From Hungateiclostridiaceae bacterium UBA1305 (GTDB taxonomy: Bacteria > Bacillota > Clostridia > Acetivibrionales > DTU013), in the NCBI GenBank assembly GCA_002307275.1, contig DBTX01000068.1:3065-67064 (forward strand): DNA of 64,000 nt, read 5' to 3'. Under the pieces are notes generated by a model. The model searched no databases, was not told where the DNA came from, and was given only the letters and a program-made list of their open reading frames with translations. Of this stretch, positions 10,187 through 61,763 are shown piece after piece. The position numbers and the translations under genes were made by a program. Numbering within the stretch: the stretch's first letter is position 1; each line of letters begins with the position of its first letter.

Positions 10187-12118
10187 TTAATTGTTCTCCA
10201 GATATTCAAACAGCTTTTCTGCAGCGGTTCTGCTAATACCTTCCACAGCCTGCAGATCATCAATCCCTGCCTGCCTCATTCTGCTGACAGAGCCAAAATG
10301 CTTGAGCAGTGCCTTTTTACGTTTGGGTCCGATACCTTCTACTTCATCCAGCACGGACTTTGTATACCTCTTTGTCCTCAGCTTTTTATTATAGTCAAGA
10401 GCAAACCTGTGTGCTTCATCCTGTATCGATGTAACAAACCTTAATACCGTTAGGTTTTTGGATAAATCAATTTCTCTGTCCGGCAGGACAAGCCCTCTAG
10501 TGCGATGCCTGTCATCCTTGACCATGCCGCAGATCGGAATGGAAACACCCAGTTCAGTCAGCACCTCACTTACAGCGTTGACATGGCCAAGACCGCCATC
10601 CAGCATGATCAGGTCCGGCATTTTGGAAAACCCGGCCTTTCCGGCTACCTGTTTCTCTACTTCCTGCTTCTCTGCTTCCTGTTTCCTGTCTTCCTGTTTC
10701 TCTGCTACCTGCATCTCTGCTTTCTGTTTCTCTATTTCCTGCTTCTCGGCTTCTGCGTGCTTTAATCTTCTGTACAGAGTCTCCTGCATGCTTGCATAAT
10801 CGTTCTGCACCTCGGTTGAACGGATTTTGAAACGCCTGTATTCCTTCTTTGCAGGCATTCCCTGTTCAAACACCACCATTGATGCGACGATCTCGGAGGA
10901 ACCTGTATTGGATACATCGTAAGCTTCCAGCCTTTGAGGCAGCTGCGTAAGTCCAAGTGCTTCCGACATTCCACGCAGTCCTTCCTGCACTGGTCCTCCT
11001 CCTGCAAGCCTCTCATTGAATCTGGCAAGCTCCAGCTTCGCATTCTGTGAGACCATTTCCACCATGTGAAGCTTTTCTCCTCTTTGGGGCACCTTCACAT
11101 GCACTCTGCCGCCTCTTTTAGAACTGAGCCAGTCCTCAACGACATCAATATCTTCGAATTGCGTTTCAACGACTATTTCAGGCGGTACCATCGCCGCTGT
11201 GCTGTAAAACTGTTTAAGGAACGAGGACGCCAGTTCCGGAAGCTCTCCTTCACCCGTACCTTCTACAATAAAGTATTCCCTTCCGAGCAGCTTGCCGCCT
11301 CTTATGAAAAACACCTGAACGCAAGTGTCGGTTTTGCTCGCGGCAAAGCCTATGATGTCCTGATCGGAACCGGCAACGGAAAGCACCTTTTGTTCCTCTG
11401 TGATATGCCTCAGACTGGAAAGTTTGTCCCGCAGCGACGCCGCCTTTTCAAAATCAAGCGTTTCCGACGCAATCGCCATATTTTTCTCCAACTTTTGAAT
11501 GGTCGCCTCCTGCCTGCCATCCAGGAAAGAACAGATATCGCGCATCAATATACCGTATTCCGCCTTGTCCACATTTCCCGTACAAGGTCCGAGACACTGA
11601 TTGATGTGAAAGTTAAGACATGGCCTGCCTTTTCCTATATCGCGCGGCAACTCACGCTTGCAGGATTTTATGGGGAATACCTTTTTGATGAGATTCATCG
11701 TTTCCCTGACGGAGAATACATTGGAATAAGGCCCAAAATATCTGGCTCCATCCTTATCAACCCGTCTGGTCATGAACATCCGGGGATAATCCTCATACAT
11801 TGTTATTTTAATATAGGGGTAGTTTTTATCATCCTTGAGCAGGATATTGAATCTGGGTTTATGCTTTTTAATCAGATTGCATTCGAGAATGAGTGCTTCC
11901 AGTTCAGTATCTGTGACGATGTACTCAAACTCGCTGATTTTCGCCACCATGGCTGTTACCTTTGGCGAATGGTTCGCAGATGTCTGGAAATATTGCCTGA
12001 CCCTGTTTTTGAGCACCACGGCCTTCCCAACATAAATAATGGCGCCACTTTCGTCCTTCATAATATAAACGCCCGGTTTATCGGGCAGTTTTTTAAGTTC
12101 TTCCTGTATGTCGAACAT
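10187..12118 (-). CDS. uvrC: Excinuclease ABC subunit C (UvrC) with an E/K/Q-rich insertion
   Basis: GIY-YIG N-terminus (PGVYIM...IYVGKA), UVR domain, RNase H-like endonuclease domain and C-terminal HhH2. Confidence 0.95.
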   Translation of the reverse strand: MFDIQEELKKLPDKPGVYIMKDESGAIIYVGKAVVLKNRVRQYFQTSANHSPKVTAMVAKISEFEYIVTDTELEALILECNLIKKHKPRFNILLKDDKNYPYIKITMYEDYPRMFMTRRVDKDGARYFGPYSNVFSVRETMNLIKKVFPIKSCKRELPRDIGKGRPCLNFHINQCLGPCTGNVDKAEYGILMRDICSFLDGRQEATIQKLEKNMAIASETLDFEKAASLRDKLSSLRHITEEQKVLSVAGSDQDIIGFAASKTDTCVQVFFIRGGKLLGREYFIVEGTGEGELPELASSFLKQFYSTAAMVPPEIVVETQFEDIDVVEDWLSSKRGGRVHVKVPQRGEKLHMVEMVSQNAKLELARFNERLAGGGPVQEGLRGMSEALGLTQLPQRLEAYDVSNTGSSEIVASMVVFEQGMPAKKEYRRFKIRSTEVQNDYASMQETLYRRLKHAEAEKQEIEKQKAEMQVAEKQEDRKQEAEKQEVEKQVAGKAGFSKMPDLIMLDGGLGHVNAVSEVLTELGVSIPICGMVKDDRHRTRGLVLPDREIDLSKNLTVLRFVTSIQDEAHRFALDYNKKLRTKRYTKSVLDEVEGIGPKRKKALLKHFGSVSRMRQAGIDDLQAVEGISRTAAEKLFEYLENN

Positions 12119-36107: not shown

Positions 36108-36293
36108 TTACCAGCTGGCTTTCTTCACGCCAGGTATCTGCCCTTTATACGCCAGAAGTCTGAAGCACAAACGGCATACTCCGAACTTCCTCATGTACGC
36201 ATGAGGCCTACCGCAAAGCTTACATCTGCTATATGCCCTGGTACTGTATTTGGCGACTCTTTGCTGCTTAATTATCATTGATTTCTTTGCCAC
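36108..36293 (-). CDS. rpsN: 30S ribosomal protein S14 type Z (zinc-binding, 61 aa)
   Basis: [12 protein letters not shown]...[25 protein letters not shown] at 36293 has an AGGAGG RBS; the ORF-track extension to 36392 runs into the repeat array. Confidence 0.93.
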
Positions 36294-36311
36294 GTTTATC
36301 CTCCTTTCATC

Positions 36312-36524
36312 GGGGACATTCCTTGGTATGGACTTTGAAGGTGTGTCCCCATTCCTTGACCGACATTCCTTGGTATTGGACATCAGGGACATTCCTTGGT
36401 ATGGACTTTGAAGGTGTGTCCCTATTCCTTGTTAAGGTGTGTCCCCATACCTTGACCGTCATTCCTTGGTAATGGACTCATCTTCAGGGACATTCCTTTT
36501 TCAGGATCTTTGAAGGTGTGTCCC
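36312..36524. repeat. Tandem array (~2.5 units of ~88 bp) with three GGGACATTCCTT...AAGGTGTGTCCC hairpins, in the rplE-rpsN spacer
   Basis: Near-identical hairpins at 36312-36350, 36396-36432 and 36487-36524. They are interleaved with attccttgaccg(a/t)cattccttggta segments. Confidence 0.8.
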
Positions 36525-36548
36525 TGTACCTTGAATTCCCCTAACCTT

Positions 36549-37487: not shown

Positions 37488-37630
37488 CCTTGGATGTTTT
37501 AGAGGTAATTCGCGCCACTGTGGCGCTAAACATCCGCCTTGGATGTTTTAAATGAAATCCGCGTCATGGACGCTAAACATCCGCCTTGGATGTTTTAAAT
37601 GAAATCCGCACTATAAAGCGCTAAACATCC
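37488..37630. repeat. Three tandem ~47-bp hairpin units in the rplN-rplX spacer
   Basis: CCTTGGATGTTTTA...GCG-loop-CGCTAAACATCCG occurs at 37488-37536, 37537-37583 and 37584-37630. Each unit pairs GGATGTTT with AAACATCC. Confidence 0.85.
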
Positions 37631-43644: not shown

Positions 43645-43700
43645 AGGGGACATACCTTTCTGAACATGCTGTATTCCTTTTGCGTTAAGGAATGTCCCCT
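43645..43700 (-). promoter_or_regulatory. 14-bp-stem hairpin in the rpsJ leader, immediately 5' of the RBS
   Basis: AGGGGACATACCTT (43645-43658) pairs with AAGGAATGTCCCCT (43687-43700). It has the same GGGACAT.CCTT core as the rplE-rpsN array. Confidence 0.6.
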
Positions 43701-43968
43701 TCTGATTTGTTACGTACAACAAGCGATTTTCTGTACACTATGCCGGGTGTTTCCTGTTTAGCTATTTTAAAACCCAGGATGCTTACAGTACCATAAGGCC
43801 TGTAAAACCTGGGCTGTACTTTACAAACAGACACATATTACTATGTGTTCGCAAAATGTACAGTGACTTGTCGCCCGGTTTCTCGAATCGGACATTCTCT
43901 GCGGAAGTTCCCTATTTCTAAGAATAGCCATCTCCCACTTCATCGTATGTCATGTCACAGCAAGTGAT

Positions 43969-59645: not shown

Positions 59646-61763
59646 TTAGCCAAATATGACGGTAATGATATGATCAGCATTATTAGGGCTGCTTGCTTTT
59701 ACTTTGACTGTTGTATGCTTAGTCTTCAAATCCAAAAGTGTAACCGCATTAATCCCTTTGCCTACCTGTGATGCCAGGTTCTGTAGTATTACCAAATTAT
59801 CTTTTGTATAACTGGAGTATGAGTCACCGCTTGTTCCAACTGCCACGCCACTGTATACATATCCCGCAGGCACGGTAATCATATCGACAAGAAGCTGGTA
59901 GAATTGTCCTCCTGTCAAAACAGACTGACTCTCTTTACCCGATTTTAAAGTAGCTGTAATTGTTCCGCTTGCTGCTGAGACAGAATAGCAATTGAGCAGA
60001 CTCTGAGTACCCAGCGTGTCACCTGCGGAAACTTTAATAGTAAGAGTTATATCCTTTAACTTGGTAGTTCCACTATATACGGATACATTTCTTGTTATAC
60101 TGCCGCTCAATATGCTCTTGATCGTCTTGACACTGACATCACCGTCAAATACGAATCCTGCGCCAAAGAATGCTTCAATAATAGAGTTGTTGCCTCCAAA
60201 ATCAAATGTACCATTCGAACCCGTTACCGGATTGGTGGCATCACTTATGACTAGTTTTGTAGCTGCGAGAGGACTTGTAACCTTCAAGCCATTGATATAT
60301 ACAGCATCACTGACACCACTTAAATCAACTGTATAGGTGGTTCCACTGACAGTAGCATTGATCGCCCCGCCGCTTTTTGTCGTTAATGCAATAGATGTAA
60401 TGCTGGTGTCTGTATTGTTGTTATTATTGTTATTATTATTTGTTGTTGTTGTTGTCGTTGTTGTTGTTGTATTTGATGTCAACGATGTACCGCTAACTAT
60501 AGCAGTTATTCCAGCAGCTATGACCGTATTGGTCGGCTTCATCACAATAACAACGCCTGCAGCATTAATATTAGCTGTTGTAATGCTTCCCTGACCGGTT
60601 ACCTGAACACCCGCATTAGCAGTTAAAGTAGTTATTGAAGCACCGGATCCTAAATTTATACCTGCATTCGTTGCGCCTGCACCGACTACCAATGTCCCAA
60701 TATGTCCATCCGAAATTTGAACTGCCGTGTTAGGAGCGTTTATTGATACTTCATCGAAGTCACCGTCCAGATTAATCGACTGGCCCGGGGCTATTCTCAT
60801 AATCGTTACATTGCCAAAGCCTAATCCGGTTAAGCCATTCTCTTCAAGCCGTGCGCCGGAGTTGAGCAGAACGCTGTTTACCTCTGATGATCCTTCAGCG
60901 ACAATCCTTATTTTCCCATCCACTTTAATAACAATTAATGTTCCTGTAAGTGAAGTATTTACAAGATCGATGCTGTTCTCACCGCCGCCCATAACTATGG
61001 TTTTTCCCTTTACCTTGACGTTGTCAAGGGTGACATTGCCATCACCAATACCCGGTGCAAGGAATAAGTCTCCATTGATAACCATATTTTTAAGAGTTAC
61101 ATCTTTGGTATTAACCATAAGATTCTTTTCAATAGTTCCTGTATATACACCAGCTAAATTTTTTAGTTCTTGAACTGTATTATCAATTATTTTCACTGCT
61201 TCAGCACGTGTTACATTTTCTTTGGGAGCAAACAAGTTTCCAGGTCTGCCTGACATATAGCCTTTCTCTGTAACAGCACTGACAGCAGCCTTTGCCCATG
61301 CTGCTATGTCCTTGGCATCAGTGTACTTGTCTGCAGTGCTTGCATTGGCACTCAGCATAAAAGCTCTGGAAAGCATTACAGCCGCTTCCTGCCGGCTTAT
61401 GGATTCTGTCGGCCGGAATTTGCCCTTGTCACCAACGATAACTCCTGCTGAAGCCGTTTTTGAAACAATCTTTGAATACCATGAATTTTCAGAAACATCT
61501 GTGAATTTTGTGCTTGATAGGTCTACGTAATTAAACAATTTACACAGCATGCTTGAGAATTCCGCTCTGGAAATTGCCTTTTCCGGAGCATATGTACCAT
61601 TTGGATTACCATTGATAATCCCTTTTTCAACCCACTTGCTAATTTCTGCAGCCGCCCAATTCCCGTTAGTATCGGAAAACTGAGCAAATGCAGGTACTGT
61701 TATTATAAACAGCATTAATAAAACTACACCTAAAGATATGGATTTCTTTAAACCCCTTTTCAT
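59646..61763 (-). CDS. Surface protein with a signal peptide, three N-terminal SLH domains, a beta-helix-like repeat region, a poly-Thr/poly-Asn linker and a C-terminal domain
   Basis: Three SLH repeats (FSDTNGNWAAAEISKW..., FTDVSENSWYSKIV..., YTDAKDIAAWAKAAV...), the T10N9 linker, and a signal peptide ending in PAFA. Confidence 0.9.
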   Translation of the reverse strand: MKRGLKKSISLGVVLLMLFIITVPAFAQFSDTNGNWAAAEISKWVEKGIINGNPNGTYAPEKAISRAEFSSMLCKLFNYVDLSSTKFTDVSENSWYSKIVSKTASAGVIVGDKGKFRPTESISRQEAAVMLSRAFMLSANASTADKYTDAKDIAAWAKAAVSAVTEKGYMSGRPGNLFAPKENVTRAEAVKIIDNTVQELKNLAGVYTGTIEKNLMVNTKDVTLKNMVINGDLFLAPGIGDGNVTLDNVKVKGKTIVMGGGENSIDLVNTSLTGTLIVIKVDGKIRIVAEGSSEVNSVLLNSGARLEENGLTGLGFGNVTIMRIAPGQSINLDGDFDEVSINAPNTAVQISDGHIGTLVVGAGATNAGINLGSGASITTLTANAGVQVTGQGSITTANINAAGVVIVMKPTNTVIAAGITAIVSGTSLTSNTTTTTTTTTTNNNNNNNNNTDTSITSIALTTKSGGAINATVSGTTYTVDLSGVSDAVYINGLKVTSPLAATKLVISDATNPVTGSNGTFDFGGNNSIIEAFFGAGFVFDGDVSVKTIKSILSGSITRNVSVYSGTTKLKDITLTIKVSAGDTLGTQSLLNCYSVSAASGTITATLKSGKESQSVLTGGQFYQLLVDMITVPAGYVYSGVAVGTSGDSYSSYTKDNLVILQNLASQVGKGINAVTLLDLKTKHTTVKVKASSPNNADHIITVIFG

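Follow-up and report, generated by a model that had tools for sequence, protein, structure and literature searches.

Inverted repeats of TIRYT genes share the motif GGGG[AT][CG]A[CG], abbreviated GGGGWSAS (PMC3733652; PMC6006769), and intergenic copies of the TIRtron/TIRYT repeats may stand alone, in pairs or in clusters (Di Nocera, De Gregorio and Rocco, 2013; PMC3733652). For genes of TnpA-Y1 subclass 2.1, no REP-like repeats have been reported nearby (Quentin et al., 2018; PMC6006769). The REP/BIME and REPIN-RAYT elements of Enterobacteria and Pseudomonas are short imperfect palindromes, dispersed in many copies and strictly extragenic, that often lie between co-directional or convergent genes, are transcribed within operons, occur clustered or in tandem, and combine a strand-specific single-strand fold with a short, conserved tag that stays unpaired on the 5′ side of the stem. 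The REP stabilisers between malE and malF of Escherichia coli may serve as an analogue within an operon, being intercistronic hairpins that could block 3′ exonucleases and shift the output of neighbouring genes. Structured RNA in the spc transcript near rplE and rpsN is represented by the S8-mediated control site of the E. coli spc operon and by the ribosomal protein leaders of Rfam, which are single-copy, operon-specific and conserved within clades. We know of no description of REPs inside the essential spc operon directly before a ribosome-binding site (RBS).

In the window, that is, the whole 64,000-nt stretch of DNA analysed, which belongs to a genome of 3.8 Mb (43% GC, 95 contigs) and carries the ribosomal genes of the spc operon on its minus strand, the spacer between rplE and rpsN is filled by a hairpin array (Table 1). 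This array is probably a REP/TIR-like palindromic element (GGGGWSAS, TIRYT-related), orphan, locally amplified and passively co-transcribed. Its family shares with the TIRtron/TIRYT repeats an arm that starts with GGGGACAC and the GGGGWSAS end motif, the occurrence of single, paired and clustered copies between genes, and, in relatives of the host, long Y1 genes framed by inverted GGGGAC repeats. It differs from them in that the two ends stand head to head in one hairpin of 37–52 bp with no gene inside, in that it spans many Bacillota classes with near-invariant arms, and in lacking, in the searches described below, both a Y1 gene in the window's genome and any gene with exactly these arms. 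All the features of REP/BIME and REPIN-RAYT listed above recur here, but the tag is AGGWAWG instead of GTAG or CGTC, the arrays run head to tail and do not alternate as in REP/BIME, copies number in the tens and not in the hundreds, and the host is a low-GC anaerobic member of the Bacillota. Unlike the ribosomal protein leaders, the hairpin is dispersed, variable in copy number and absent from most relatives.

Table 1 Features of the rplE-rpsN spacer and other repeat copies mentioned in the text (positions in the window unless a contig is named; sequences of the array in mRNA sense)
Feature	Position	Strand	Evidence or folding energy
rplE (L5), 180 aa	36549..37091	-	ORF list; L5 70–100% identical in 31 genomes
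rplE-rpsN intercistronic spacer, 255 nt, filled by the hairpin array	36294..36548	-	sequence
Hairpin 1, 38 nt: GGGACACACCTT-CAAAGATCCTGAAA-AAGGAATGTCCC	36487..36524	-	-13.2 kcal/mol, z -2.1
Linker 1, 41 nt: degenerate 3′ element half (GTCCATTACCAAGGAATGACGG) and 5′ tag of the next copy, CAAGGTATG	36446..36486	-	sequence, direct-repeat family D2
Half copy: left arm GGGACACACCTT, AAC and truncated right arm AAGGAATA	36423..36445	-	sequence
Hairpin 2, 37 nt: GGGACACACCTT-CAAAGTCCATACC-AAGGAATGTCCC	36386..36422	-	-12.6 kcal/mol, z -2.4
Linker 2, 36 nt, 93% identical to linker 1	36350..36385	-	repeat comparison
Hairpin 3, 37 nt, same sequence as hairpin 2	36313..36349	-	-15.8 kcal/mol, z -2.9
rpsN Shine-Dalgarno sequence GGAGG, unpaired beside the hairpins	36300..36304	-	sequence; GGAGGATAAAC-GTG conserved among relatives
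rpsN (S14), 61 aa, four-cysteine type, GTG start 36293-36291	36108..36293	-	ORF list, sequence
Second, unrelated hairpin repeat, three tandem copies of 42–44 nt, GGATGTTTAGCGCC..GGCGCGRATTTCCNCTAAAACATCC	37492..37630	-	rplN-rplX spacer
Family copy of the 52-nt subtype between S10 leader and rpsJ Shine-Dalgarno sequence	43647..43698	+	-18.8 kcal/mol in mRNA
Two family copies between rpoB and rpoC	G000:C28:31074-31182		
Family copy between rpoC and the L7Ae-like gene at the head of the str cluster	G000:C28:27374-27410		
Family copy between NuoF-like and [FeFe]-hydrogenase genes	C69:23547-23583		
Family copy upstream of a gyrB/parE-like gene	C67:28176-28212		

In mRNA sense, the rplE stop codon TAA (36551-36549, minus strand) is followed by a tag, hairpin 1, linker 1, the 23-nt half copy, hairpin 2, linker 2, hairpin 3 and CGAUGAAAGGAGGAUAAAC-GUG, with 8 nt between the end of hairpin 3 and the S14 Shine-Dalgarno sequence. 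The three hairpins of 37–38 nt and the half copy amount to 3.5 copies of GGGACACACCTT-loop-AAGGAATGTCCC. As RNA, each hairpin reads GGGACACACCUU, a loop of 13–14 nt and AAGGAAUGUCCC, and is held by 7 + 4 base pairs flanking a fixed 2×2 mismatch, CA opposite AA. The arm GGGACACACCTT occurs four times and AAGGAATGTCCC three times in the spacer, compared with 0.07 and 0.32 occurrences expected by chance in the entire window. A repeat finder reported a 51-nt unit in three copies that start 73 and 102 nt apart, as well as a family of conserved 44-nt linkers, and Tandem Repeats Finder reported a 23-nt repeat at 36411-36454, covering the region of the half copy. Elsewhere in the window, the latter program marked a 15/45-nt periodic repeat of 7.3 copies and an 18-copy TTG run (10644-10753 and 60415-60470, respectively).

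A sequence-only reading of this DNA had described an unusually long spacer holding an inserted tandem hairpin array with a conserved linker, through which an ORF reads as a false extension of a zinc-type S14 gene. The results showed that this description was correct: the 255 nt compare with 13–27 nt in relatives whose site is empty, the linkers form a repeated family, the gene after the spacer is of the four-cysteine type, and the ORF through the spacer (36108-36392, 94 aa) led the ORF finder to extend rpsN falsely to 36392. The array itself was found where that reading had put it, although the second hairpin, given as 36396-36432, was placed 10 nt off. The proposed 'about 2.5 units of 88 bp' was not borne out; as the distances between starts are 73 and 102 nt, 88 bp is their average and not a real period. 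The reading had also called the three stem-loops strong. Folded singly, they reach -12.6 to -15.8 kcal/mol with z-scores of -2.1 to -2.9, whereas the fold of the whole spacer was no better than that of shuffled sequences (z -0.77), so that the hairpins stand and the word 'strong' is somewhat overstated.

Neither a promoter-like site nor a terminator-like site, the latter in the sense of an intrinsic terminator or attenuator with a GC-rich stem and a U run, was found in 36294-36548; the hairpins are followed on their 3′ side by CUGAAG, CUGAUG and CGAUGA, not by a U run. Several known kinds of element were also considered and rejected. A CRISPR array was set aside as the linkers themselves are repeated and other arrays of the family have constant linkers too. 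Compared by eye with consensus structures, the CA/AA internal loop is not that of a K-turn or an 11-nt tetraloop receptor, the T-loop of a tRNA-like minihelix is missing, and the toxin gene that would go with a type III antitoxin repeat does not follow. The inverted repeats of the Tn3 family do not apply, the whole element being shorter than two 38-bp inverted repeats. The likeness of AAGGAAUG to a CsrA site and the possible pairing of CACCUC with GAGG, as in anti-Shine-Dalgarno mimicry, may be regarded as resemblances only.

The array lies in a repetitive region, and a short-read assembler might have mis-expanded a single hairpin into a tandem array, the more so as the contig of an independent short-read assembly breaks inside it. 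Over the first 156 nt of the spacer, this contig (Logan, SRR5325151) is an exact match; it contains hairpin 1, linker 1 and the half copy, and ends within hairpin 2 after covering most of it. Furthermore, the units are not identical, as hairpin 1 has its own loop, the linkers are only 93% alike and the half copy is unique. A JGI record with the same gene order, in which rpsN is uncalled and a gap of 466 nt separates L5 from S8, has the same L5-to-S8 distance as the window, though it possibly represents the same assembly. An exact-protein look-up for strain variants led to two places only, one of them without DNA. Given the differing units and the matching contig, we regard an assembly artefact as very improbable.

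The sequence-only reading had proposed a genome-wide motif search. With up to two mismatches allowed, 39 hairpins were found at 23 loci in the window's genome, all of them between ORFs, while a reversed control pattern gave one match. Exact arms were present in 23 of the 41 relatives, some belonging to other families of the order, while control matches were absent, and at more than 118 loci in named records from several Bacillota classes (Peptococcaceae, Desulfotomaculaceae, Syntrophomonas, Tissierellia, Sedimentibacter, Eubacterium, Oscillospiraceae and Clostridiaceae); among viral contigs, only four had them. A search of Rfam 15 at permissive thresholds, covering 30-48 kb of the window and eight hairpin-rich loci, returned no family that covers the hairpin, and a literature search with the arm sequences returned unrelated primer matches only. 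The family consensus is an imperfect hairpin of 37–52 bp with the arms GGGGACACACCTY and RAGGAATGTCCCC and the conserved 2×2 mismatch (CA opposite AA). The subtype seen in the spacer is 37 nt long and has a plain loop, another is 48–49 nt long and has an inner stem, and the one seen before rpsJ is 52 nt long and has the interior GGTATTCCTTTTGCGTT. Tandem, nested and directly abutting copies are common, and tandem arrays with constant linkers occur elsewhere in the window's genome as well. A four-hairpin array about 2 kb before the start of the window (G000:C27:965-1217), directly after an ORF of 157 aa, has three copies of the 49-nt subtype that recur every 69 nt with the same 20-nt linker between them, and a fourth copy with a different, 46-nt interior.

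These findings do not agree with the earlier view of the array as a device specific to the spc operon and S14. A platform dedicated to S14, either an autoregulatory site for a ribosomal protein or a zinc-linked control before the four-cysteine S14 gene, would explain why the array lies immediately before rpsN, and a protein could recognize the internal loop, which is conserved and non-canonical (CA/AA). However, identical hairpins stand beside unrelated genes (in the rpoB-rpoC spacer, in a hydrogenase operon, at a gyrB/parE-like gene and at others) and in unrelated contexts in distant Bacillota, the hairpin is missing from most genomes with the same type of S14, and no Rfam leader family matched, which makes such a platform a highly improbable explanation. 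Because the repeat is scattered through the genome and through many other Bacillota, it is better seen as an ordinary selfish palindrome in an unusual place than as a dedicated S14 regulator.

Four of the 23 loci fall in the RNA polymerase and ribosomal protein clusters, namely between rpoB and rpoC, between rpoC and the L7Ae-like gene, in the rpsJ leader and between rplE and rpsN. A rough post hoc binomial estimate of this enrichment is about 6e-4, if about 1.6% of the intergenic spacers are taken to lie there, and the clustering could be due to selection and not to chance or a preferred target.

Strand and orientation of the copies were analysed next to their flanks. Among 204 distinct copies, interior folding was stronger on the sense strand, read from left arm to right arm, in 147 and on the other strand in 42 (p = 3e-20), implying that one particular strand is the folding strand, a property expected if the substrate is single-stranded and strand-specific. 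In other genomes, crude ORF calls placed 44 copies in sense and 36 in antisense to co-directional flanking genes, showing no bias, and this near-random orientation is likewise at odds with a device specific to spc or S14; in the window's genome, equally crude calls gave 9 sense and 2 antisense, a sense majority that counts against the reading as a mobile element. The 5′ flank A-G-G-W-A-W-G was present before the stem in 75–92% of 152 non-tandem copies. Taken together, the strand-biased fold, the near-random orientation, the 5′ tag and the nested or abutting copies are more suggestive of single-stranded DNA as a strand-specific substrate than of a cis-regulatory RNA.

The left arm GGGGACAC fits the GGGGWSAS motif, and the right arm, read inward as GGGGACAT, matches 7 of its 8 positions. 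The window's genome is 94% complete; an HMM search there gave no match to PF01797 (Y1_Tnp), and tblastn with five TIRYT proteins of relatives gave no match either, implying that the hairpin copies there are orphans. Y1_Tnp matches were found in 32 of the 41 relatives, many of them in long ORFs of 225–360 aa, among them proteins of 225–330 aa with the Y---NP signature, and the five proteins that were extracted all have the Y1_Tnp domain, most with the Y---NP signature. TIRYT genes framed by inverted GGGGAC repeats, none with the exact family arms, were found in six relatives (G001, G022, G031, G008, G149 and G156); loci with such a frame are L202, L182, L195 and L268. In the sister species G001 (L202) the flanks of the gene are GGGGGACGCTTCTCAAAA ... 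TTTTGAGAAATGTCCC. In G031 they are GGGGACATTTCTCAAAA ... TTTTGAGAACTGTCCCC, where GGGGACATTTCTCAAAA has one mismatch to the right arm of the family. In G156 they form a perfect 17-bp inverted pair whose left end is preceded by AAAGGTAAGGAAAGGTAAAAAG, and at L270 the left end carries, besides its repeat, a AAGGTAAG-type tag. By eye, the gene-proximal left end at L202 and L182 closes in S (GGGGACGC / GGGGACAG), like the left arm of the family, and the right end is AATGTCCCC, like the right arm.

No Y1 gene flanked by both exact arms was found in the hairpin-rich relatives and external genomes, where the flanking repeats had at least one mismatch in 13 positions, and none of the 118 external hairpin loci had a Y1 gene within 8 kb. 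In a rough tally of the 41 relatives, 17 had both Y1 gene and repeat, 6 the repeat only, 9 the gene only and 9 neither, a weak correlation. The resemblance of the ends suggests that the hairpin family works like TIRYT ends and is probably derived from them; since no gene has the exact arms, none lies within 8 kb and the correlation is weak, its membership of the TIRYT class is putative.

The rplE-rpsN site was compared in 30 relatives. In all other families of the order the spacer is 14–18 nt long, and where the site is empty the sequence is stop-AAGGAGGATAAAC-GTG. In the window's own family the spacer measures 13–27 nt in six genera and 48–156 nt in the rest. Each of the two sister species has a single hairpin there, the spacers being 81 and 60 nt long, so the number of units does vary among close relatives (3.5 here), a comparison that the sequence-only reading had also suggested. 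The genus g5 has a copy of the 37-nt type; in G008 the copy has an interior of the 52-nt type, while its congener G018 is empty; and G011 and G005 have copies with other interiors. Only remnants whose arms are no longer matched are left in G012, G004, G015 and G009. Among the filled sites, those at L015, L017, L019 and L021 are decayed. A hairpin directly before the S14 RBS is present in 8 of 149 genomes of the order, all in the window's family. The pattern appears to be that of a permissive or preferred site with repeated gain, decay and loss, and the 3.5 copies here are presumably a species-level amplification. Site content that differs among relatives and is empty outside the family again disagrees with a device specific to spc or S14, and this variation and absence fit a neutral selfish repeat, the outcome that the sequence-only reading had itself named as contrary to its proposal.

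The site history also bears on a different explanation, in which a former repeat is now kept in the spc (and rpoBC, str and S10) transcripts as a useful RNA element, possibly by blocking 3′ exonucleases, by offering a processing site to an endonuclease, by decoupling S14 output from L5 or as a landing pad with many Shine-Dalgarno-like AAGGA words. In every genome with a copy at rplE-rpsN, all copies there are in mRNA sense and end a few nt before a free RBS; the hairpin is retained at the site in G001 and G002, which have very few other copies; compensatory changes in G002 keep the 7-bp stem, the CA/AA mismatch and three further pairs; and the clustering of loci in the RNA polymerase and ribosomal protein clusters, rough and post hoc as its estimate is, would be in line with co-option. 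In E. coli, REP hairpins stabilise upstream mRNA segments according to work cited in PMC6006769. On the other hand, no repeat occupies the site in several genera of the window's family or in any other family of the order, several filled sites are too decayed to form a hairpin, copy number and subtype vary between close relatives, and orientation across the family is near random. We therefore think co-option as an RNA element unlikely, and the two further repeat-bearing sites in the ribosomal operons, described next, contribute one point on each side.

A hairpin core near the rpsJ RBS had been noticed in the sequence-only reading. This copy is present, but it is of the 52-nt subtype and its sense strand is the plus strand of the window, so that it is inverted relative to the rpsJ mRNA; its orientation, opposite to that of the rplE-rpsN copies, argues against a retained RNA element. 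It is absent from both sister species, which have the clean site GTAACAAATTAAGGAGG; copies in the same spot and orientation are found in G013 and G015, and degenerate ones in G006, G010 and G033. The S10-Clostridia leader of Rfam was matched at 43868-43952 with 35.3 bits against a cut-off of 35.1. A block upstream of rpsJ, CCUGGGUUUUAAAAUAGCUAAACAGGAAACACCCGGCAUAGUGUACAGA..CUUGUUGUACGUAAC at about 43711-43778 (minus strand), is conserved in most examined relatives across the order; as it lies outside the Rfam match, the S10 leader may extend further 3′ than the model. Between the S10 leader and the rpsJ RBS of the relative G003 (L232), a remnant of the GGGGAC family stands beside a copy of the GGATGTTTAGCGCC family, implying that the site upstream of rpsJ also collects both repeats.

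The GGATGTTTAGCGCC family is the second, unrelated hairpin repeat of the window. Its outer stem is GGAUGUUU/AAACAUCC, its inner stem GCGCC/GGCGC covaries, and it has a conserved bulge of 11–12 nt, GRAUUUCCNCUA. It was not found elsewhere in the window's genome, occupies the rplN-rplX spacer of at least eight examined relatives in 1–5 copies, and is dispersed in the genus g5 with 17–31 copies per genome. Through this repeat, L24 acquires a false N-terminal extension (136 versus about 115 aa), and the JGI record calls L24 at 136 aa, matching the extended ORF. The recurrence of a second, unrelated repeat in this spacer in many genera is the point in favour of co-option mentioned above. Judging from these two families, ribosomal operons in the window's family seem to accumulate small palindromic repeats, with at least two kinds represented, possibly through target preference (for example for single-stranded DNA exposed in highly transcribed regions), through tolerance or through a benefit.

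Under the reading of the array as an orphan REP/TIR-like element, the hairpins would have spread as single-stranded DNA hairpins through a TIRYT-type Y1 transposase acting in trans, and one copy would have landed in the gap that separates the rplE stop codon from the S14 RBS. It may then have grown to 3.5 copies by slippage or unequal recombination between the arms, or by insertion beside its own kind. The array would be transcribed passively in the spc mRNA, with three predicted hairpins of -13 to -16 kcal/mol and the S14 RBS left free. At most, it might uncouple S14 translation from that of L5 and slow the 3′-to-5′ decay of the upstream segment, and the roles suggested by the sequence-only reading, as a stabiliser, processing site, translational uncoupler or protein platform, are possible as side effects of the hairpins. 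A more far-reaching proposal, which we consider quite unlikely, is that the GGGGACAC hairpins are dispersed partners of TIRYT/subclass 2.1 Y1 transposases with their own AGG-type 5′ tag, that they land or are kept preferentially in intercistronic spacers just upstream of RBSs in the most transcribed operons (rpoBC, str, S10 and spc), and that they have been co-opted there at the RNA level, where they control the stability of segments and decouple S14 translation, the second family doing likewise for L24.

For annotation, the consequences are the false extension of S14 caused by the array, and a public record in which rpsN is missing and L24 is called at 136 aa. The essential and tightly packed spc operon tolerates several hundred bases of intercistronic repeat DNA. 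The family would link a near-invariant hairpin of the Bacillota with TIRYT-type HUH transposases, a class that is poorly understood, and a gap in the literature exists here. If the clustering of copies in RNA polymerase and ribosomal protein clusters is real, it raises the questions of whether single-strand transposases target highly transcribed DNA and whether such hairpins tune the stoichiometry of ribosomal proteins.
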